DNA from: Verrucomicrobiota bacterium
GTDB lineage: Bacteria; Verrucomicrobiota; Verrucomicrobiia; Limisphaerales; CANJXF01
Direction of reading: 5' to 3'
DNA: 57,340 nt
Assembly: GCA_038214755.1 (NCBI GenBank)
Contig: JBBQRQ010000022.1
Coordinates: 1 to 57,340, forward strand
Shown here in pieces: positions 43,980 through 57,340 of this stretch. A program made the translations under genes and the position numbers. The notes beneath the pieces were generated by a model, which worked only from the letters and a program-made list of their open reading frames with translations, had not been told where the DNA came from and did no database searches. Numbering within the stretch: position 1 is the stretch's first letter; the number at the start of each line of letters is the position of its first letter.

Positions 43980-44040
43980 AGAAAGGAGTCAGGAGTTAGC
44001 AATCAGGAGAAAACTTCGCCGCCGAATCGTGCTGGAATAT

Positions 44041-44217
44041 GAAATCCGAAATCCGAAGCCCGAAATCCGAAAGAAATCCGAAATCCGAATATCGAAAACG
44101 ACTTCCAGCTGGCACCCAAAAAACTGCTTCACCACCGGCACCATGCGGCAAATCTTTCTGCCTTCGGATTTCGGATTTCGGATTTCTTTCGGATTTCGGG
44201 CTTCGGATTTCGGATTT
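44041..44217. repeat. AATCCGA / TCGGATT heptamer-repeat palindrome
   Basis: GAAATCCGAAATCCGAAGCCCGAAATCCGAAAGAAATCCGAAATCCGAA ... and its reverse complement. Confidence 0.9.
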
Positions 44218-44383
44218 GGAATTATTCTATTCATTGGCAGCCGAGCCTAATTTCCGCCCTGAGATTTCTCAATTGAAATTCCGTCTCCCTTTCTCCCTTT
44301 CTCCTTATCCCACTTTCTTTTCTTTGACCCTGGCCGAAACTTTTCCTATCTTCGCGTGTTTCTCAGAGGGTAGAAATCCGATC

Positions 44384-46135
44384 ATGGCACTTTTATCGAT
44401 CAAAAATTTGTTGGCCGAAAGCGATCTCGCCACTCCCGCGCAATTCGATCAGTGCAGCAAAGCCTGGCGCATTGCCCTCGAGAGCGGCTCGCAGGATTCG
44501 CTCCTCACTTTCATCTCGCGCGAGCGTGGTCTCTCCGAAGAAGCCTTCTTGCAGCAACTCGCCAAGGCTTTGGGTTGGACTTATCTCGAACTGGCAAAAA
44601 TGGATCCGCAAGCCGAGGCGCGAAACAAAATTTCCACCAAAGTCGCGTTTCAATATTTCGTGCTGCCGACAAAATTTGAAGATGGAAAATTGCAAGTGGC
44701 GGTGAGCAACCCGTTTGACGCGGCGATGTTGAGCGCGGTGCAATTCGATGCGCGCGGCCCGGTGCAATTTGCCCTCGCGCCAAAACCTGAAATTGAAAAG
44801 TCGCTCAAAAAATATTACGGCGTCGGCGCGGAAACTCTCGACGAAATGTCCAAGGACGAACCGCTCGAACTGCTCATTGGCGAGGACAAGGAAATCACCG
44901 AAGGCGACCAGGAAGCGAGCGTCATCAAATTTGTAAATCAGATTATCTGGGAAGCGTTCAAAGATCGCGCGACCGATATTCATTTTGAACCGGCGGAAGA
45001 TGAACTGCGAATTCGTTATCGCATCGACGGCATTTTGCATCAGACACCGATGCCGCCGCAGTTGAAACGGTATCAAGCCTCGCTCATCTCGCGCATCAAA
45101 GTGATGAGCGGAATGAACATCGCCGAAAAACGTTTGCCGCAAGACGGACGCATCAATGTGCGAATCAAAGGGGAAGAAATTGATATTCGCGTTTCGACAG
45201 TGCCCACCGTTTATGGCGAAAGCGTTTCGCTCCGTTTGCTCACGCGCGGCAAAATATTTTTCAGTATGGAAAAACTCGGTTTCTCTCCACTGGAAGAAGC
45301 GGCCATTCGTGAAATTATTATCAAACCGCACGGCATCATGCTCGTGACCGGGCCGACCGGTTCCGGAAAATCCACGTCGCTCTATTCTTTTTTGAGCACG
45401 ATCAATTCAGTCACGAAACGAATCATCACCATCGAAGAGCCGGTCGAATATGAACTCAAAGGCATCAACCAAATCGCGGTGCGTTCGGACATCGGCCTGA
45501 CCTTTGCGATGGGGCTGCGCCATATTTTGCGGCAAGACCCGAATGTAATCATGGTCGGAGAAATTCGCGATTTGGAGACGGCGGAAATCGCCATTCGCGC
45601 CGCGCTGACCGGCCATTTGGTTTTTTCCACGTTGCACACCAACGACGCACCGAGCGCCTTCACGCGCTTGATCGACATGGGCATCGAACCGTTTCTCGTC
45701 GCGTCATCGGTCGAAGCGATTTTGGCGCAACGTCTGGTGCGCACGATTTGTCCGCATTGCAAAGTGGAACAAAAAGTTGAACGAACGTTTCTGCGCAAGA
45801 TTGGTTTTCCCGAAAACGAAATCGAGACGGCAAAATTTTGGCGCGGCGCGGGTTGCGAACTTTGCCGACAACTTGGCTATCAAGGCCGAATGGGAATTTA
45901 CGAATTGTTGATTTTGAACGAAGCGATTCGCCCTCTGGTCATGAACCGCGCGCCTGCTTCCACCATTGCTCATCGCGCGATGGAGGAGGGGATGCGCACA
46001 TTGCGCACCGACGGTTGGAATAAAGTTCGCGCGGGGTTGACGACGGTCGAGGAAGTGTTGCGCGTCACGCAAACTGAAGAACACATGAAGGCGCTGGTGG
46101 ACGACAGCCGGACAGAAATATGGGCCAAAAGTTAA
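44384..46135 (+). CDS. gspE: GspE/PilB secretion ATPase
   Basis: RATDIHFEP, IAEKRLPQDG, GPTGSGKST, LRQDPNVIMVGEIRD, tetracysteine motif. Confidence 0.93.
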   Translation: MALLSIKNLLAESDLATPAQFDQCSKAWRIALESGSQDSLLTFISRERGLSEEAFLQQLAKALGWTYLELAKMDPQAEARNKISTKVAFQYFVLPTKFEDGKLQVAVSNPFDAAMLSAVQFDARGPVQFALAPKPEIEKSLKKYYGVGAETLDEMSKDEPLELLIGEDKEITEGDQEASVIKFVNQIIWEAFKDRATDIHFEPAEDELRIRYRIDGILHQTPMPPQLKRYQASLISRIKVMSGMNIAEKRLPQDGRINVRIKGEEIDIRVSTVPTVYGESVSLRLLTRGKIFFSMEKLGFSPLEEAAIREIIIKPHGIMLVTGPTGSGKSTSLYSFLSTINSVTKRIITIEEPVEYELKGINQIAVRSDIGLTFAMGLRHILRQDPNVIMVGEIRDLETAEIAIRAALTGHLVFSTLHTNDAPSAFTRLIDMGIEPFLVASSVEAILAQRLVRTICPHCKVEQKVERTFLRKIGFPENEIETAKFWRGAGCELCRQLGYQGRMGIYELLILNEAIRPLVMNRAPASTIAHRAMEEGMRTLRTDGWNKVRAGLTTVEEVLRVTQTEEHMKALVDDSRTEIWAKS

Positions 46136-47508
46136 AAAAGTCCCGCTGGCATTCGGCCAACGTGCTCGATGTCGGCGCGCACTCCCGGCATCTCTGGCAG
46201 TTTTCTGTCAACGACGGAAAATTCAGCGTCACGCGCGATCAACCGCTCTCTCCCACTGAACCGCCCGCCGAAAAGCTCGTCGCAAAAAGTTGGAGCGAAA
46301 TCTGGCAGCCCAAATTAAATGTCGCCTGGTTGCCCGCCGAAAAAGTTTTCCTGCGCGTGCTGCATTTGCCGGCCAGCGATTTTGCGGAAACGCTTTCCAT
46401 GGTCGAGTTGCAATTGGAAAAAATTTCGCCGATGCCGGTCGCGCAAATTGTTTGGAGCGTGGAGCTTCTCCCCAAACGCGCCGAAGACACGCTGCAAACA
46501 GTGGTCATCATCGTCGTGCCACGTGATGTGGTGGAACAATTCCTTGGCCAGTTGGAAGGGCAAAAATATTTGGCGGACCGTCTGGAGCTGCCGCTGCTGG
46601 ACGAACTATTGGCGATTCAGGTTCACGAGGACGGTGTCTGGATTTTTCCGGGCGCAACGACTTCTTCCCCGTATCTGGTGGCGTGGTGGTATGGCGGACT
46701 TTTGCAGAACGTAACTTTATTTTCTTCGCCGGCCGGTGGGGAATTGGGGCCGTCGATTAAAGAACAAATTTCGCAAGTTGCCTGGACGGGAGAATTGGAA
46801 GGCTGGCTGACCTCGCCCCCGCGCTGGCATCTGGTCGCGGCGGATGAGATAGCGACGATTTGGGAATCGATGTTGAATCAAGTCGTCGATCAGCCCGTGC
46901 AATTGGTCGCGCCTCCATCGCAAACGCAAATTGCCGCGATGACCGCGCGCCGCTCTGTTCAAGCCAATGGAGCCGCGAGCTTGTTGCCGCCAGAATTTGC
47001 CGCGCGCTATCGCCAGCAATATGTGGATCGCCTTTGGATGCGCGGACTCGGCGCGGTGGTGGCGCTTTATTTAATTGGCGTGGTGATTTATTTCGGCGCT
47101 CTTCAGGTTTTAAAATTTCAACGGTATCGCGCGCAAAGCCAGGTCGCCGCCATCAGCCAGTCCTACACCAACGCCTTGAAAATGGAGGCGCGCATCCGCG
47201 TGTTGGAAGACCGGAAGAATTTGCAATACGCCGCGCTGGATTGTTGGAAAGCAGTGGCGGAATTGTTGCCCCCCGAAGTTTCGGTGGATCAAATTATTTT
47301 TCAGCGTGGAAAAACATTCGATCTTTACGGAACGGTTCCGCAGGAGAGCCAAACGGATATCACCGATTTCAACGAAGCGTTGAGTCGCCACAAAGTGAAC
47401 GGCGAACCGTTGTTCAGCGAGGTCAAGATGCAAGGACTCCGGGTCCGCGGGCCGGTGGTGGAGTGGAGATTTTCCTGCAAGTTGCGCAAAGGAGAGGAGG
47501 CCAATTGA
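46120..47508 (+). CDS. GspL / PilM-PilN-like assembly protein
   Basis: Located after the ATPase. Actin-like N-region, then a TM, a coiled coil and a ferredoxin-like C-terminus. Confidence 0.65.
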   Translation: MGQKLKKSRWHSANVLDVGAHSRHLWQFSVNDGKFSVTRDQPLSPTEPPAEKLVAKSWSEIWQPKLNVAWLPAEKVFLRVLHLPASDFAETLSMVELQLEKISPMPVAQIVWSVELLPKRAEDTLQTVVIIVVPRDVVEQFLGQLEGQKYLADRLELPLLDELLAIQVHEDGVWIFPGATTSSPYLVAWWYGGLLQNVTLFSSPAGGELGPSIKEQISQVAWTGELEGWLTSPPRWHLVAADEIATIWESMLNQVVDQPVQLVAPPSQTQIAAMTARRSVQANGAASLLPPEFAARYRQQYVDRLWMRGLGAVVALYLIGVVIYFGALQVLKFQRYRAQSQVAAISQSYTNALKMEARIRVLEDRKNLQYAALDCWKAVAELLPPEVSVDQIIFQRGKTFDLYGTVPQESQTDITDFNEALSRHKVNGEPLFSEVKMQGLRVRGPVVEWRFSCKLRKGEEAN

Positions 47509-48224
47509 GTTCCTACCTCGACAAATTAAATTTGCGTCCGCAAGAGCGCCGCCTGGTCGTGGGAATCATGGCGGTCATTTTCGTCGTGCTTAATGTGCTG
47601 ATGGTCTGGCCGCATTTCGGCGATTGGTCCTTGGTGCGGGCTGACCTCGAAAAGGCGCGCAACGATCTTTTTAAATATGAAAAAAAGATCGCCCAGGCCA
47701 AAGGTCCGAATGGTTACGAGGCGCAATTGAAAAGGTTGGAAGGAGAAGGCGAAGCGGTCGTGGCCGAACAGCAGGACATCCAATTGTTTCGCACAGTGCA
47801 AAGCAAGGTCACGGAAAATAAAGTCAGCGTGAGCGACTACGGCAAGATTACGCAAACCAGCGGGAGCCAAAGCACCAATGAATTTTTTGAAGAGCAATCC
47901 ATTTCTATCGGCGTCAATACCGGAGAAAAAGAACTGGTGGATTTTCTGCTCGATGTGGGCGCGGGCAGTTCGATGATCCGGGTGCGCGACCTGGATTTAA
48001 AACCGGCTGATCAAAATCGTTATCGTTTGCAAGGGCGCGTTACGTTGAGCGCGAACTATCAGAAAAAACCCGCCGTGAAACCGGCGGCTCCGGTGGCGAA
48101 ACCCGCCGCGACCGCCGCTGCCAAACCCGCAGCGCCATCGCCCGCAAAGCCAGCCGTTTCTCCAGCAGCGGCTAAACCAAATCAGCCGGCGAAACCGGCG
48201 CCCTCCACCGTCAAAAAAACCTAA
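47505..48224 (+). CDS. GspM/PilO-like protein with Pro/Ala/Lys-rich tail
   Basis: TTG start overlapping the previous stop. LNLRPQERRLVV plus a TM and a coiled coil. Confidence 0.65.
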   Translation: MSSYLDKLNLRPQERRLVVGIMAVIFVVLNVLMVWPHFGDWSLVRADLEKARNDLFKYEKKIAQAKGPNGYEAQLKRLEGEGEAVVAEQQDIQLFRTVQSKVTENKVSVSDYGKITQTSGSQSTNEFFEEQSISIGVNTGEKELVDFLLDVGAGSSMIRVRDLDLKPADQNRYRLQGRVTLSANYQKKPAVKPAAPVAKPAATAAAKPAAPSPAKPAVSPAAAKPNQPAKPAPSTVKKT

Positions 48225-48235
48225 CCATCGCTCTT

Positions 48236-50476
48236 GTGAAAACTATCTATTCTCTTTTTCTCGTTCTGTTGTTCGCGCCGTTGGCCGAGGCGCAAATCAC
48301 TCAGCCCGCCGCGACGAACTCGGCGTCGAACCTGCCGGTGCCGGTGCCGCGCCGCGCCATTCCCACTCGCGGCGCAGCGGGCGCGACGAATTATTTCGGC
48401 GGCGCAAAACCTTTCACCAATGCGATTGCTCCATCCATTTCCACGAATCCAAACGCAACCGTTCTTCCCTCTCTTCCCTCTTTTCCTTCTGTCGCAAATA
48501 CGAATGCCGCACCAGCCACGCTTAGAACCAATCTCGGCACTGCGACTCGGCCAACGTCTCCATCAACTCCATCCGGTCCTCCATCTATTGGAGCGCCCGG
48601 TGTTGTCGCGAAAAGTCTCCCACCTACCAACGCCGTTCCCGAAGTCGGCAGCTACCATTACGACTACCAGCAAATGGCGCTCGAACAAATTCTCAGTCAA
48701 TACTCCGACCTGGTCGGACGAACATTGCTGCGCGGGCAGGGTTTGCCCGCTGCGCAAATTACTTTGAAGACGCATGGCGATCTCACCCGCTCGGAAGCGA
48801 TTATGGCTTTGGAAACAATCCTGGCGATGAACGGAGTAACCTTCATTTCGATTGGTGAGAAATTTGCCAAGGTGGTGGTCGAGGCGCAGGCGGGACAAGC
48901 GGGCGGCAAGTTTTCCAACGCGGATCCCAGCGAGTTGCCGGACGCCGGCAAATACGTGACGCAGATCATTCAGTTGAAATATGCGCAAGGTCAGGAAGTT
49001 CTCGGCGCGCTGCAACCTTTTGCCAAGACGCCGGCGAGCATTATTTTATTGCCGACAAGCAACACGCTTATTTTGCGCGACTACTCTGAAAACATAAAAC
49101 GGATGCTCGAAATAATTGAAAAACTCGACACCATTACTCCGGTTGATATTAAACCGGAAGTCATCCCCATCAAATACGCTTTGGCGACGGATATTTCTCA
49201 AGTGCTGGGAAGTTTGACGGCGAGCGGTCCGGGTCTTTCCGTGGGTCGCAGCAATACGCGGGGAGCGGGGGTGACGCCGGGCGGTTACCAGCCGGGGGCG
49301 CCCGGAGCAAATCCAACGATCGGTCAGCCGGGAGCGAATACCTTTCAGCAGCCGGGACAATCTGGGTTGGGTGGCGCGGGCACGACGCAACGAAATAGCT
49401 TCCAGCAAAATCTGCAACGCATCGTCAGCCGCATCGCCGCTGGCACGGGTGAGTTTCAAATTCTCGGCCAGGCAAAAATTATCGCCGATGAACGAACCAA
49501 CTCTCTTCTCATTTTTGCCAACGATCAGGACATGGTCATGATCAAAACAATCATCGCTCAACTCGACGTGGTGCTTGCGCAGGTTTTGATCGAAGCGATT
49601 ATCATGGAAGTTTCTCTCGACGACACCAAGCAGATGGGAATCAGCTATCTTCAACAACCCAAGACAACTGGGAAATTCACCGGTGCCGGCGGGGTTAATA
49701 ATGGGCAAACCATTCCAACTGGAGGAACCAACGGATCGACGCTGGGCATTCAAAATTTGGCCAGCGGCTTCAGTTACTTCGGCACTTTCGGAAATGATTT
49801 TGATGTCGCAGTCAACGCGATGGCGACAGACGCGCGCGTGAACGTTCTTTCCCGCCCACGCATCCAAACCTCGCACGCCGTGCCCGCTACGTTGTTCATC
49901 GGAGACACGGTTCCTTACATCACGGGCACTTCTTCTTACTTGAGTGTGAGTGGAGGCACCAGTTCGCAGTATCAGGAAAAGCGGGTCGGCATCACGTTAG
50001 ATGTCCTTCCGCTCATCAATCCCGATGGCCTCGTCGTGATGGACATTCAGCAAAATATCCAACAGCTCGGACCCAATCAGATCATCGATGGAAATCCAGT
50101 TCCGACCACGACGGAACGTTCTGCTCAGGCCAAAGTCGCCGTGCGTGATCGCGAGACAATTATTCTCGGCGGATTCATCAGCACTACTAAAAGCAAATCC
50201 AAATCCGGCGTTCCATATCTCAAAGATATTCCCGGTCTGGGAATACTCTTCCGCAGCTCGGCCGACAGCATGAAACGCGTTGAGTTGATCGTTCTGCTTC
50301 GCCCCACTGTTCTTCCCTCGCCGGAATCTGCCGCGTTGGTGGCGGCGACGGAGCGGGATAAATTGTCCGGCGTCAAACAAGGCGAGTTCGAGATTCGCGA
50401 AATGGAACGCAAACGTCAGGAACAGCTCGACGCGCAAATGCGGAAAAAATTAGGCATCAAAGATCGCCCACTCTAA
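48236..50476 (+). CDS. gspD: type II secretion secretin GspD
   Basis: IIADERTNSLL, QVLIEAIIMEV, VLSRPRIQT, GVPYLKDIPGLG.LFR. Confidence 0.93.
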   Translation: MKTIYSLFLVLLFAPLAEAQITQPAATNSASNLPVPVPRRAIPTRGAAGATNYFGGAKPFTNAIAPSISTNPNATVLPSLPSFPSVANTNAAPATLRTNLGTATRPTSPSTPSGPPSIGAPGVVAKSLPPTNAVPEVGSYHYDYQQMALEQILSQYSDLVGRTLLRGQGLPAAQITLKTHGDLTRSEAIMALETILAMNGVTFISIGEKFAKVVVEAQAGQAGGKFSNADPSELPDAGKYVTQIIQLKYAQGQEVLGALQPFAKTPASIILLPTSNTLILRDYSENIKRMLEIIEKLDTITPVDIKPEVIPIKYALATDISQVLGSLTASGPGLSVGRSNTRGAGVTPGGYQPGAPGANPTIGQPGANTFQQPGQSGLGGAGTTQRNSFQQNLQRIVSRIAAGTGEFQILGQAKIIADERTNSLLIFANDQDMVMIKTIIAQLDVVLAQVLIEAIIMEVSLDDTKQMGISYLQQPKTTGKFTGAGGVNNGQTIPTGGTNGSTLGIQNLASGFSYFGTFGNDFDVAVNAMATDARVNVLSRPRIQTSHAVPATLFIGDTVPYITGTSSYLSVSGGTSSQYQEKRVGITLDVLPLINPDGLVVMDIQQNIQQLGPNQIIDGNPVPTTTERSAQAKVAVRDRETIILGGFISTTKSKSKSGVPYLKDIPGLGILFRSSADSMKRVELIVLLRPTVLPSPESAALVAATERDKLSGVKQGEFEIREMERKRQEQLDAQMRKKLGIKDRPL

Positions 50477-52878: not shown

Positions 52879-52886
52879 CAATTTCC

Positions 52887-52977
52887 ATTCGATGTTCAGT
52901 GTTCGATGTTCGATGTTCGATGTTTCGCATTGAAAACAAACATCGAACATCGAACACTGAACATCGAACATCCAACG
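52887..52977. repeat. GATGTTC heptamer-repeat palindrome
   Basis: TTCGATGTTCAGTGTTCGATGTTCGATGTTCGATGTTT ... AAACATCGAACATCGAACACTGAACATCGAA. Confidence 0.9.
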
Positions 52978-52987
52978 CCCATTAAAA

Positions 52988-53407
52988 ATGCCGCCGCGCG
53001 GTGTCATGGACACCAACGTTCTTTACGCCGGACTTCGTTCGCGCCATGGGGCTTCCTTTCAACTTCTTGATGCACTTTGGCAACGCAAATGGACCCTTCT
53101 TCTCAGCCAAACCGTGCTCACGGAATACGAAGAAATCCTCAAGCGCGAATCGGTCGCGCTCAACTTAACATTTCAAAAAATTGATGCTCTGCTCGACGCG
53201 CTTTGCGCTCTAGCTGAACGCCGGCGTCTCTCCGATCTTTGGCATCCGGTATTGAGTGAATCAGAAGATGAGGCGTTCGCGCATCTGGCTGTAGAAGCCA
53301 AAGCCGGTTATCTGATCACCCATAACGTTCGGCATTTAGAACCCGTTCGGAAGCTCGGCGTAAACCTTCTTGAACCCAAAGATTTTCTCGCAATAATACG
53401 CCTATGA
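52988..53407 (+). CDS. PIN-family toxin
   Basis: VMDTNVL, EYEEIL, DEAFAHLA, LITHNVRH. Confidence 0.88.
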   Translation: MPPRGVMDTNVLYAGLRSRHGASFQLLDALWQRKWTLLLSQTVLTEYEEILKRESVALNLTFQKIDALLDALCALAERRRLSDLWHPVLSESEDEAFAHLAVEAKAGYLITHNVRHLEPVRKLGVNLLEPKDFLAIIRL

Positions 53408-53640
53408 CGATGATTCACGCGCAGGTTCCGGACTATCTCGCCGCGCTCGCGGCAGAAACGGCCGCCAAAGAAAAAACCACGCTCGACCAAATTATCGCGC
53501 TGGCACTTTGCGCACAATTGGAAGCGTGGAAAGTGCGCGACGATATGGAAGTCCGGGCCTCGCGTGGGAGCCCCGAAAATCTTCGCCAGATTCTCGATCA
53601 GGTTCCAGACGCGCCGCCTCTGCCCGGTGACGAGAAATAG
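53404..53640 (+). CDS. putative RHH-type antitoxin
   Basis: ATGA overlap with the toxin. IHAQVPDYL..A..A.KE..TLDQII..AL and C-terminal VPDAPPLPGDE. Confidence 0.8.
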   Translation: MTMIHAQVPDYLAALAAETAAKEKTTLDQIIALALCAQLEAWKVRDDMEVRASRGSPENLRQILDQVPDAPPLPGDEK

Positions 53641-53709: not shown

Positions 53710-54915
53710 ATGAACATTCACGAATACCAAGCCAAACAACTCCTCGCCCAATACGGTGTCACCGTTCCAGCGGGGGAAGTCTGCGATACCGCGGAGGGCG
53801 CAAAAAAAATCGCGGAAAAACTTTTTGCCGTCGGTGAAAAAGTTGTGGTGGTCAAATCACAAATCCACGCCGGTGGTCGCGGCAAGGGAACTTTTAAGAG
53901 TGGTTTTCAAGGCGGCGTTAAACTTTGCAAGACGGCCGACGACGTATTTGAAAAAGCCAAAGCCATGCTCGGCAATATTTTGGTGACAAAACAAACCGGC
54001 CCGGAAGGACGCCTTGTTTCCAAGTTGTTGATCGATGCCGCGCCGCAGATCAAAAAAGAATTTTATTGCGCCGTCCTGCTCGACCGCGCGTCGTCCCGAC
54101 CAATCATGATGGTCAGCACCGAGGGCGGAATGGACATCGAGGAGGTGGCGGAAAAACATCCGGAAAAAATCCTCAAAGAAACCATGGACCCGGCCGTCGG
54201 CATTATGCCATATCAAGCGCGCAAGCTCGCGGTGGCTCTCGGTTTGAAAGGAGATTTAATTGCGGCCGGCGCAAAATTGCTTCTCGGCATCTACAAAACG
54301 TGGTGGGAATCCGACGCCGCCATGGTGGAAATAAACCCGCTCTGCATCGTCCTCGGCGCGGACGGGAAGGAAACTTTGTCCGCCGTCGATGCGAAAATCG
54401 GTTTGGACGACAACGCGTTGTATCGTCACAAAAATCTTCAGGAGATGCGCGACCTCGCCGAAGAAGCGCCGTTGGAAATCGAGGCCAGCAAATACAATCT
54501 CAACTACATCAAGCTCGACGGTTCTATCGCTTGCCTCGTGAACGGCGCAGGCCTCGCGATGGCGACGATGGACATTATTCAGCATTTCGGCGGCAGCCCG
54601 GCGAATTTCCTCGATGTCGGCGGCGGCGCAAGCAAAGAGCAAGTGACTGCCGCATTCAAAATTATTCTCAGCGATCCGAGTGTGAAAGGAATTTTGGTCA
54701 ACATTTTTGGCGGCATTATGGATTGCAACGTCATCGCCACCGGAATTGTGGCCGCAGTGAAGGAAACGCACTTGAGCATTCCGCTCGTTGTTCGCCTTGA
54801 AGGAAACAATGTTCAAGCTGGCAAAAAAACTTTGGCGGAATCCGGCTTGAGTTTAATTACTGGCGATTCCATGGCGGACGCGGCGCAGAAGGTTGTTAAG
54901 GCTGTCGGCAAATGA
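53710..54915 (+). CDS. sucC: succinyl-CoA synthetase beta subunit
   Basis: [43 protein letters not shown]. Confidence 0.98.
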
Positions 54916-54927
54916 TAAAATTGGAAC

Positions 54928-55308
54928 ATGAAAAATCGTATGGGAACTTTTTACACGAGTTGCAAAGTAGATAACCACGTTGATCGACGGAAGTCCGTTG
55001 AAGTCTCGAAAATGCTGGTGGACTCTGGCGCGGAGTTTACTTGGATCAATGCGGAAACCCTGAAGAATATCGGCGTCAAGCGTGAGGAAAAAAATTACAC
55101 GTTCGTCATGGCCAACGGGCTGGAAATCACTCGAGCGGTCGGCTTTGCCATCATTCATGTCGGCGATGCGTTGACGATTGATGAAGTCATTTTTGGCGAG
55201 CCGGGGGATTTACAAATCCTCGGCGCTCGGTCACTTGAAGGCATGAATCTGCGCGTGGATCCGCGCGCCAAAAAACTTGTCGCCGGTGGACCAGTTTTGG
55301 CCGCTTGA
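54928..55308 (+). CDS. small clan-AA aspartyl protease-like protein
   Basis: LVDSGA catalytic motif and ILGARSLEGMNLRVDP. Confidence 0.85.
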   Translation: MKNRMGTFYTSCKVDNHVDRRKSVEVSKMLVDSGAEFTWINAETLKNIGVKREEKNYTFVMANGLEITRAVGFAIIHVGDALTIDEVIFGEPGDLQILGARSLEGMNLRVDPRAKKLVAGGPVLAA

Positions 55309-55316
55309 GTTTCCGC

Positions 55317-55409
55317 TTATGCTCAAAGTCATCGAACTCGCCTTTTGTTGTTACGCCGTCACGGACATGAAGCGCGCCACAAAAAGTTGTTTAGACTTTT
55401 GGCGACTGA
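55317..55409 (+). pseudogene. chimeric junction: duplicated VOC gene 5' end fused to a degenerate sucC 3' end
   Basis: 55317-55377 matches 55954-56014 at 58/61 nt. 55380-55409 matches 54886-54915 at 22/30 nt, ending on the same TGA. Confidence 0.75.
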
Positions 55410-55421
55410 TACTTTGACCGT

Positions 55422-55655
55422 ATGACGATGACATTGTTGAAAGAAGCAGCGAAGCTCCCACTGTCTGACCGAATCAAACTGGTCGAAGACATCTGGAACT
55501 CCATTGCTGATGAAGCAGATCATCTTCCGTTGTCCAAAGAGCAGGAACTCGAACTCGATCGGCGACTGGCGTTGATGAGAAAAAATCCGACCCGGGCAAT
55601 TCCATGGGACCTTGCCAAGCAACGGATTTTGAAACGGCGATCGCCCGCAAGATGA
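55422..55655 (+). CDS. addiction-module antitoxin (TIGR02574-like)
   Basis: LPLSDRIKLVEDIWNSI..ELDRRL..IPW. Confidence 0.9.
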   Translation: MTMTLLKEAAKLPLSDRIKLVEDIWNSIADEADHLPLSKEQELELDRRLALMRKNPTRAIPWDLAKQRILKRRSPAR

Positions 55656-55948
55656 AGCGAGAGTTGACGATCCAACCGGAGGCGGAGACCGAAGCGAACG
55701 ATGCTTTCAACTGGTATGAAGATCAGCAGTCAGGTTTGGGCAGTGAATTTTACCGTGAACTAGCGCGCTGTTTTGAATTTATTTTAGCAAACCCACTCTT
55801 GTCGCGTGCAGTGTATCGCGGCTTACGGAAAAGAAAATTAGATCGGTTCCCTTACTTGATCGTTTATCAAGTGAGCGATGATGAGATTTCGGTCGTTTCG
55901 GTGTTTCACGGCAGCCGCAATCCTGCAGTTTGGAAAAAACGCGCGTAG
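55652..55948 (+). CDS. RelE/ParE-family toxin
   Basis: PEAETE..DAFNWYE....GLG.EF, RFPYLIVY, VFHGSRNP..W. Confidence 0.92.
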   Translation: MKRELTIQPEAETEANDAFNWYEDQQSGLGSEFYRELARCFEFILANPLLSRAVYRGLRKRKLDRFPYLIVYQVSDDEISVVSVFHGSRNPAVWKKRA

Positions 55949-55955
55949 TTTTTTT

Positions 55956-56330
55956 ATGCTCAAAGTCATCGAACTAGCCTTCTGTTGTTACGCCGTCACG
56001 GACATGAAACGCGCTCGTGAATTCTACGAAGGCGTGCTGAATTTGAAGGCCACCACCGTCACGGATTCCGGCCACAACCAGTGGGTGGAATATGAATTCG
56101 GCCCATATGCGCTCGCCATCGGATGCGCGCCCGGAATGTTCAAACCAAGTCCCGACGGCTGCGCCGCCGCGCTTGAAGTCGAGGATTTCGATGCGGCCAT
56201 AAAACAATTGCGCGAGAGCAATGTGAAATTCCGCATGGAGCCGATGGATTGTCCCTCGTGTCGCATGGCGATGATTTTTGATCCCGACGGCAACACCATT
56301 TGCATTCACAAACGGAACGCGAAGGAATAG
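55956..56330 (+). CDS. VOC/glyoxalase-family protein
   Basis: YAVTDMKRAREFYEGVL, LEVEDFD, FDPDGNTICIH. Confidence 0.92.
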   Translation: MLKVIELAFCCYAVTDMKRAREFYEGVLNLKATTVTDSGHNQWVEYEFGPYALAIGCAPGMFKPSPDGCAAALEVEDFDAAIKQLRESNVKFRMEPMDCPSCRMAMIFDPDGNTICIHKRNAKE

Positions 56331-56339
56331 ATTTTTGCC

Positions 56340-56558
56340 ATGAATGCGACCTTGGAAAAAGAATTGGACGCGCTCTCACCGGAAGAAAAAACCGAGGTGA
56401 TTGACTTCCTCTTGCCGAGCGTAGTGGGCAGCGACAACGATGAAATTTCCACCGACTTGCTGGCTGAACTGGAACGCCGTGACGATGCCTATGAAGCCAA
56501 TCCCACCGGCGCGATGACGTTGCGGGAATTCGACAAGAAGTGGTTTGGCCGGAAATGA
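56340..56558 (+). CDS. addiction-module antitoxin (TIGR02574-like)
   Basis: ALSPEEK.E.I..L..S..AELERRD. Confidence 0.85.
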   Translation: MNATLEKELDALSPEEKTEVIDFLLPSVVGSDNDEISTDLLAELERRDDAYEANPTGAMTLREFDKKWFGRK

Positions 56559-56860
56559 GTTTGCAACTCATCATCACGCCCGATGCCGATCACGATATTG
56601 AAGAAGCCTGTGCCTGGTATGACGAGCAACAAGCCGGTGTGGGACTGCGATTTGTTCTGGCGGTGCGTCTGCGCTATGAGGACATTTTGCGGTCGCCATT
56701 GTTGCCGCGTCCATTCGGGCGGAAAGCGGTTCGTAAAATTCGTGTCCCGCCTTGGCCTTATTTCATTTACTATCGGATCGTCAACGATGCAGAACTTCGT
56801 GTTGTGGCCGTCATTCACGGCGCTCGCGACCCAAAATATTTAAATTACCGACTCCGGTAA
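56555..56860 (+). CDS. RelE/ParE-family toxin
   Basis: PDADHDIEEA..WYDEQQAGVG.RF, WPYFIYY, VVAVIHGARDP. Confidence 0.9.
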   Translation: MSLQLIITPDADHDIEEACAWYDEQQAGVGLRFVLAVRLRYEDILRSPLLPRPFGRKAVRKIRVPPWPYFIYYRIVNDAELRVVAVIHGARDPKYLNYRLR

Positions 56861-56865
56861 ATCTC

Positions 56866-56949
56866 ATGGCAATACTCGTCACACCCCAAACCAAAATTCT
56901 CGGCGAAGGCATTACCGGCAGCTTTGGCGCGCGTCACACCGACGGCTGA
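56866..56949 (+). pseudogene. sucD: sucD 5' fragment (27 codons)
   Basis: MAILVTPQTKILGEGITGSFGARHTDG* matches the SucD N-terminus (MSIL....TKV.VQGITG..G..HT) and lies downstream of sucC. Confidence 0.8.
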
Positions 56950-56983: not shown

Positions 56984-57340
56984 ATGAACCCGGCCGACTC
57001 GAAGGAAAAGCAAACGCACAATCCTGTCTCTGAGGAGTTAAATCAATTAGCCCGGCTCCGCGAGCAGCGTGATGATTCCTCGAACAAACTTCTGCGCAAC
57101 ATTAAGCAACGCTTGCCGCAACTGGAGGAATTGCTGGCACGGGTCGAAGATCACTGGGGCATTGAGGACGGCTTTTATCGTTTTTATCATCACTCTTTCA
57201 AGGTCTATCATCTTCAATATGCAACCAAAGAAATCTGCGACGCCTTGCAAGGCCTGCTACCCGACCATCCAATGAATCGGTGGTTTTCGGAAATCGTCGC
57301 GCAAGGCACCGGCATTGAATTTGAAAGCTCACACAATAAA
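56984..57340 (+). CDS. hypothetical protein, partial (runs off window)
   Basis: Manual translation MNPADSKEK...HWGIEDGFYRFYHHSFKVYHLQ...MNRWFSEIVAQGTGIEF, open to the edge. Confidence 0.7.
   Translation, partial: MNPADSKEKQTHNPVSEELNQLARLREQRDDSSNKLLRNIKQRLPQLEELLARVEDHWGIEDGFYRFYHHSFKVYHLQYATKEICDALQGLLPDHPMNRWFSEIVAQGTGIEFESSHNK

Follow-up and report, generated by a model that had tools for sequence, protein, structure and literature searches.

The window analyzed here is a stretch of 57,340 nucleotides that forms the entire contig JBBQRQ010000022.1 (C22) in the 5.1 Mb genome of a Verrucomicrobiota bacterium (G000), and this study was concerned with the interval between sucC and sucD near its end. 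In this interval small cassettes, among them an aspartyl-protease-like gene and two toxin-antitoxin (TA) pairs, lie behind one another and alternate with truncated copies of the ends of neighboring genes, termed stubs below. The preferred interpretation, to which we assign a probability of roughly 0.6, is that cassettes stack here through recombination with DNA from relatives and that a stub of the sucC end is kept as the promoter of a TA pair. A sequence-only reading of this DNA had proposed that two alternative versions of one junction, from sucC to a VOC/glyoxalase gene, are stacked in tandem. This proposal is supported, as each version was also found singly in other genomes.

Stacked junction alleles between sucC and sucD

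The order of elements 3' of sucC is the protease gene, a stub of the VOC start (VOC'), a stub of the sucC end ('sucC), a first TA pair (TA1), the intact VOC gene, a second TA pair (TA2), a stub of the sucD start (sucD'), orfX and sucD. All genes of the interval are co-oriented on the forward strand, and the gaps between them are short (5-12 nt). The VOC' stub (55317-55377) matches the VOC start (55954-56014) at 58/61 positions. As the sequence-only reading had stated, its three differences (55339, 55345 and 55372, in Leu, Phe and Lys codons) are synonymous third positions. The 'sucC stub (55373-55409) is a decayed copy of the last 12 sucC codons with an in-frame stop. The previously noticed resemblance of 22/30 (55380-55409 vs 54886-54915) ranked first among the non-self matches when both strands of the genome (10.2 million positions) were searched. 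A local alignment with a 60-nt sucC query extended it to 27/37 (55373-55409). One interval out of 2000 drawn at random from the genome scored as high, as did one dinucleotide shuffle out of 2000, so that the match beats the other 1999. Both 12-nt gaps described earlier are real. The two stubs had been read as lying 2 nt apart; instead they overlap by 4 nt, CGCG (55373-55376), which fits both registers and marks the fusion point.

Direct repeats exceeding 30 bp flank both stacked cassettes; the repeat is 61 nt long at TA1 and 37 nt long at the protease gene, and each insert is shorter than 1 kb. The intact sucC (53710-54915; Pfam ATP-grasp_2 and Ligase_CoA) would provide a long homology anchor. 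The protease gene (54928-55308; 126 aa; PF13975/PF13650) lies directly 3' of sucC in all 9 of its 9 closest homologues. TA1 consists of an antitoxin, an addiction-module component (55422-55655; PF09720), and a ParE-family toxin (55652-55948; PF05016), and is followed by the intact VOC/glyoxalase gene (55956-56330; PF00903), which would act as an internal anchor of the array. The earlier account was incomplete at this end of the interval, where it had overlooked the sucD' stub, just as it had overlooked the predicted promoter in the sucC end described below. TA2 (56340-56860), an addiction-module antitoxin and ParE by their Pfam matches, is followed by the sucD' stub (56859-56940), a displaced sucD start that matches the real sucD start on contig C86 at 68/82 positions. 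An overlap of 141 nt between the end of C22 and C86 places this stub, orfX and the intact sucD at the end of the interval; orfX (56984-57340, no Pfam match) continues on C86 to the intact sucD. No mobility gene was present among the Pfam matches of the cassette genes.

A chimeric misassembly, which the sequence-only reading had raised as a concern, was rejected. A single contig of run X1 covers 54602-56939 with zero differences and zero gaps, although run X1 consists of contigs rather than reads and may be the source of this DNA, so that it is not independent support for the assembly. Chimeric assembly is unlikely because the same architecture is present in other genomes.

For comparison, 20 stretches were fetched around the best sucC matches among 40 relatives. 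A further 20 came from searches of 251 genomes, in which the protease matched 17, the antitoxin 7 and the junction DNA 46. In addition, the contexts of the 9 closest protease homologues (leaving aside 7 other genomes) and of 3 of 6 antitoxin homologues were examined. Genomes with one of the two cassettes only at this junction, as the sequence-only reading had predicted, were found. The sucC-protease-VOC allele is present in G034 and G229, and the TA1 version is present in G071 as sucC-TA1-VOC-TA2-sucD, with a more distant TA pair in the same slot in G027. These single-cassette alleles all come from families other than that of G000, and none is conspecific. Empty sites were found in G001, G036 and G017, and many different genes occupy the slot elsewhere. 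Stacks with a 'sucC stub only occur in G007, G013, G116 and G174. The second junction is stacked likewise, as TA2 lies between VOC and sucD in G007 and G071 (directly 5' of sucD there and in locus L167) and orfX lies between VOC and sucD in G013 and G034. Two measures at the gene ends would fit raised recombination but also have other explanations. First, the last 13 codons of sucC are 0.83 identical to those of protease-bearing genomes of other families (gene body 0.74), with 0.70 vs 0.71 for the rest, so that this tip of sucC goes with the protease cassette. Secondly, synonymous codons are more conserved at the VOC start (0.65 vs 0.50-0.61).

Three further loci carry decayed PIN-domain cassettes, recurrent in the sucC-VOC slot of several genomes (L035, L109 and L118). 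Also, in L051:1898-1975 (G006) and L109 (G043), VOC stubs of about 62-66 nt lead into a short sequence that is alike in both but cannot clearly be assigned to sucC; this is perhaps a second shared scar.

Recurrence of the fused scar and of gene-end scars

The same VOC'-'sucC fusion point was found in G127, L167, L171 and G009, the last an unpublished genome. Loci L167 and L171 were found by motif scans in which 2 of the 3 metagenome matches and 1 of the 4 genome matches were due to chance; two genome matches were taken as the G127 and G009 loci and counted once. The genes upstream of the fused scar differ among G000, G127, L167 and L171. For example, G127, which belongs to another family, has the composite of VOC', 'sucC, TA1 and VOC behind a different upstream gene. 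In L167 the fusion is undecayed and in frame, and its joint lies where the G127-type VOC and sucC share 8/9 bases, a level reached by only 7 of 20,164 window pairs in the G127 alleles. The GC-rich microhomology at the joint in G000 is 4 nt.

The two fused stubs of G000 differ in age. The 'sucC stub predates the VOC' stub, as it has an in-frame stop and shares with the G127 stub derived changes that are unfit for a working sucC. The VOC' stubs, by their sequences, resemble the VOC type of their own lineage (51/54 in G000 and 50/54 in G127), and the VOC' stub of G000 appears to have been refreshed later. It matches the alleles of G008 and G013 at 58/59 positions and its own VOC at 56/59, which is in line with the earlier suggestion that it came from a functional allele. 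In L171 the VOC stub came from a donor, because this stub and the resident VOC belong to different allele classes. The sucD' stub matches G005 and G007 at 68/75 positions and its own sucD at 62/75 in the same 75-nt comparison, which leaves the assignment of donor and recipient undecided.

The sequence-only reading had explained both stubs by a single circle carrying a cassette and both gene termini. In this scheme a circle with the sucC end, a cassette and the VOC start would be deleted in the donor at a microhomology and would integrate by a single crossover via a short terminus. The scheme would produce just the order seen here, the joint of such a circle would be expected to look like the clean in-frame fusion of L167, and TA1, lying between direct repeats of the VOC start, could excise again. 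However, the different ages of the G000 stubs argue against a one-step circle, and the stacks with a 'sucC stub only need none. A circle would also need a crossover within about 39-61 nt rather than within a kilobase anchor. No circle-type joint is listed among the run X1 contigs, although contigs drop rare forms. Linear one-sided integration would give the same product in fewer rare steps, and none of the data favor the circle over it. We therefore regard the circle as unlikely.

A tandem duplication in situ of the segment from the sucC end to the VOC start, followed by decay and by replacement of one cassette, is far less probable, and was already disfavored as a general cause. Slippage or illegitimate duplication would also be compatible with the microhomology at the joint, and no relative tested has a sucC end as close to the 'sucC stub (18-25/39) as that of G000 itself (27/39). 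Against this, the genes in the cassettes are not related to each other, the VOC' stub is nearer to alleles of other genomes than to its own VOC, and the stub and resident VOC of L171 belong to different allele classes. In addition, the differences in gene-end scars across the genome are mainly synonymous and the scars are polarised.

These scars were identified by searching G000 (4278 genes by our own gene calls) for copies of the first or last 30 nt of each gene, at a threshold of at least 22/30 and limited to short repeats. Copies of 3' ends were found downstream in 53/3481 cases vs 16/3444 upstream, with 2/3430 in a far control. Copies of 5' starts were found upstream in 29/3444 cases vs 12/3481 downstream, with 4/3409 in the far control. 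From 56 candidates, 13 were dropped by eye as paralogues, repeats or duplicates. Thus, the scan for terminus copies near their parent genes that had been proposed earlier returned about 43 polarised scars, 30 at 3' ends and 13 at 5' ends, which affect about 40 unrelated genes. The scars have a median length of 71 nt (range 31 to about 200 nt) and lie a median of 762 nt apart. Their ratio of nonsynonymous to synonymous divergence (pN/pS) is 0.20 with a pS of 0.30, which argues against decay in situ (p about 1e-16). From these values, most of the divergence would have accumulated before either copy lost its function, in lineages more distant from each other than ordinary strains are. Among the 71 of 82 open reading frames (ORFs) of 41 other inserts that were scanned with Pfam, TA-type families were present at 15, with DUF433 and DUF5615 presumed to be of TA type and counted as such, and no integrase or transposase family was found.

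A few of these sites have features of their own. Two other sites carry double stubs, C1:128461-130908 (L128) and C36:20924-24591 (L143), and L128 has the order geneA, geneB' stub, cargo, 'geneA stub, geneB. Three separate scars (L147, L149 and L158) have single ORF6N-domain genes as their cargo, and one of them lies downstream of a gene that we take from its sequence to be purB-like.

The absence of an integrase from view, noted by the sequence-only reading, was confirmed in that no tyrosine recombinase is encoded on C22 or C86. Five are encoded on other contigs of G000, and one integron integrase above the family cut-off lies near a contig end (C31:46601-47533). A dedicated recombinase acting in trans, such as this integrase, could therefore be considered as inserting cassettes at gene ends, and the fusion point does recur at one place. 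The cargo, TA pairs and a glyoxalase gene, resembles that of integrons. However, an attC recombination site would not fit into gaps of 5-12 nt. A crude scan, which had no positive control in this genome, found no attC-like site in the sucC-sucD interval or in any of the 43 inserts (0/43), nor any attC near the integrase on C31. Scars of variable length at about 40 unrelated genes, and the ORFs free of integrase and transposase families (71 of 82 scanned, serine recombinases and transposases not having been searched genome-wide), also speak against it. We consider this explanation the least probable of those weighed here. Of the earlier view that gene ends act as integron-like attachment sites, the analogy stands, while a literal attachment site does not fit the lack of room for attC or the range of scar lengths.

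Predicted promoters in the gene ends

Both 12-nt gaps consist of TANNNT, the form of a -10 box, and 6 nt before the ATG. At the protease and TA1 sites a hexamer starting with TTG lies 17 nt above TANNNT, within the two Val codons near the end of sucC or within their copy. The predicted leaderless sigma70 promoter of the protease gene (54893-54921) reads TTGTTA, 17 nt, TAAAAT, 6 nt, ATG, and scored 9/12 in a consensus scan. The corresponding predicted promoter of TA1 (55387-55415) lies inside the 'sucC stub and reads TTGTTT, 17 nt, TACTTT, 6 nt, ATG, with the same geometry in G127 and L167. A predicted TA2 promoter (56305-56333) overlaps the end of VOC and reads TTCACA, 17 nt, TAGATT, 6 nt, ATG; it has TTC rather than TTG at -35 and also scored 9/12.

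TANNNT about 12 bp ahead of the start has been described for leaderless genes (Zheng 2011, PMC3160421). In G000, 239 of 3558 ATG genes have a TANNNT that starts at -12, compared with 18-65 genes for distances other than -12 and -13. TTG occurs at a spacer of 16-17 in 128 of these 239 genes, while other spacers account for at most 13. With -12 and -13 combined, 349 of 3558 ATG genes have TANNNT, and the Shine-Dalgarno peak of the genome is only weak. As judged by motif and spacing, the protease and TA1 sites match a class of predicted leaderless promoters with clear enrichment in G000. In motif, distance and genome-wide peak, it is like the class described by Zheng (2011). The difference from that description is that the predicted promoter lies within the last codons and stop region of an upstream housekeeping gene.

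The motif also follows the cassettes. Among 38 sucC ends it precedes 10 of 10 protease genes and 2 of 2 antitoxins but 0 of 23 other genes, and 3 ends have no nearby ORF. Behind sucC stubs, read by eye, it precedes 4 of 4 antitoxins and 0 of 2 other genes. At VOC-antitoxin junctions TANNNT is present at -12 or -13 in 5 of 5. The last 30 nt of the 'sucC stub together with the spacer match G127 at 33/42 positions, with TTG and TANNNT unchanged, vs 46% identity at neutral four-fold sites; this baseline is lenient, as the stub began as coding sequence. From this pattern it is predicted, for this site only, that the 'sucC stub is the TA1 promoter and persists for that reason.

Two other candidate signals were set aside. 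An extended -10 TG supplied by the sucC TGA is present at most protease junctions, yet only in 28 of 239 leaderless-type genes, and was given no weight. GTT as the first Val codon, which might indicate selection on the -35 box, was counted by eye in 8/10 vs 9/26, a weak difference among kin that are not independent.

Alternatively, the stubs could be neutral hitch-hikers whose promoter-like pattern is simply a legacy of the intact allele, in which case read-through of the suc operon would express the cassettes. Co-orientation and short gaps fit read-through, the weak consensus match of the stub promoter favors a neutral stub, and such a promoter is missing from 29 of the 30 other 3' scars, which are kept nonetheless. 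The conservation of the stub between G000 and G127, with the leniency of its baseline just stated, points the other way. Overall, a neutral stub is judged less likely than not.

Proposed growth of the array and its relation to known systems

The stubs, both single-cassette alleles, the recurrent fusion point, the difference in stub age and the promoter-shaped geometry are shown by the sequences, and the steps that follow are inferred from them. Incoming DNA of a relative would use a long anchor for pairing at one flank and be joined at a microhomology inside a gene end at the other, so that the displaced end would stay with the old cassette. First, an old event may have fused the VOC start to the sucC end at a GC-rich microhomology, upstream of the antitoxin-ParE pair. 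Secondly, the 61-nt VOC' stub could have served as the second arm, with sucC, of an ordinary two-sided exchange by which the protease allele was introduced and the VOC' stub renewed. A fresh VOC' would then stand beside an old 'sucC stub because VOC' can serve as an arm for exchange of the upstream slot. Third, products that lost the TA pair or its promoter would be selected against, and for this reason stacking rather than replacement would be seen. Joints cutting into the next core gene would also be lost. Replacement killing of this kind has been described for restriction-modification genes (PMC2993543), and its application to TA pairs is our extrapolation. Uptake was probably by natural transformation. 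Genes for ComEC and DprA are present in G000.

Several observations weigh against this interpretation. The 8/9 microhomology is absent from the alleles of G000 itself. Between G000 and G127, four-fold sites of TA1 (10/22 and 13/28) have diverged to the same extent as those of sucC (72/156), and a recent transfer of TA1 between these two families is therefore not shown. The sucC tree is largely unresolved and does not force more than one origin of either label, and the relatives were picked for their similarity and do not count as independent cases. The body of sucC resembles that of congeners, so no long foreign tract marks a distant donor. The TA1 stub promoter has only 6/12 matches to the E. 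coli consensus, is below the threshold of the scan and was not listed by it, and TTG at -35 is absent at three antitoxin junctions (G071, G027 and the G116 stub). Lastly, an embedded promoter is present in only 1 of the 30 3' scars of the genome; it therefore does not explain scars in general, and was rejected as a genome-wide rule.

A broader version of the proposal is put forward more tentatively, as possible though with less than even chances. These would be integrase-free cassettes with their promoter in the end of a housekeeping gene, and the cassettes would have to carry that gene end along because the promoter is written into it. The fused scar would be both TA promoter and reusable arm, turning one slot into two, and the array would grow by host recombination across families of Verrucomicrobiota.

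The general kind of event is known, from insertion with long target duplication and from minimal mobile elements; what appears to be new is the recurrent fused scar with swappable slots and a stub that is predicted to carry a promoter. Insertion with long target duplication was reported for restriction-modification genes (Furuta, Abe and Kobayashi 2010, PMC2853133), mostly in naturally competent species. The interval resembles it in its small inserts, imperfect direct repeats of more than 30 bp and variable length, selfish cargo and lack of a mobility gene. Its definition of an insert below 20 kb without another mobile element also applies, with inserts here below 1 kb. However, there are no R and M genes here, the cargo being a protease, TA pairs and small genes, and the repeats are polarised termini of diverged alleles, with fused stubs and one predicted promoter. 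Minimal mobile elements (Saunders and Snyder 2002, as cited in PMC3787668 and PMC1797815) and integrase-free hotspots (Oliveira 2017, PMC5635113, where about a quarter of transfer hotspots are given as having no integrase or transposase) likewise show alternative cassettes between conserved flanking genes in relatives, with no integrase. As those citing papers present the model of minimal mobile elements, cassettes are swapped by double homologous recombination at the flanks, which is replacement. Here alleles are stacked, and a stub seemingly opens one more slot for exchange.

Homology-facilitated illegitimate recombination (de Vries and Wackernagel 2002, via PMC6382021 and PMC8504540) is known from laboratory work with Acinetobacter, Streptococcus and Pseudomonas and is presented in those sources as RecA-dependent, acting in competent cells at GC-rich microhomologies of 3-10 nt. 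The GC-rich joint here is alike, with 4 nt in G000 and 8/9 in the G127 alleles. In contrast, the process here would be known from its scars only, and its product duplicates a gene end. The interval also resembles integron cassette arrays in the ordered accretion of small cassettes with many TA pairs; unlike them, it has no attC-like site, no adjacent integrase (this is on C31) and no fixed crossover site. In the full-text literature searched, with most subscription papers and supplements outside its scope, neither this locus, nor a recurrent fused scar with swappable slots, nor a promoter-bearing stub was found.

A model of exchange at two flanks accounts for replacement but leaves growth unexplained. 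The intermediates of growth come together at this locus, namely the empty site, each of the single alleles, stacks with one stub and stacks with fused stubs. The proposal also offers a reason for keeping a dead gene end, as the promoter of the cassette behind it. If true, "pseudogene" stubs at such sites would be regulatory parts, and TA addiction would directly drive the growth of arrays within core operons.

Three other observations were made upstream of sucC. A PIN-domain gene and a small partner lie between gltA and sucC (52988-53640), where several relatives have only 30-140 nt, so that this position appears to be a further cassette slot. Inverted arrays of a 7-nt repeat lie between gltA and this pair (52881-52989), and similar arrays are present on many unrelated run X1 contigs. 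Lastly, judging from translations only, a type II secretion or pilus-like cluster with an ATPase and a secretin-like protein occupies 44039-50476.

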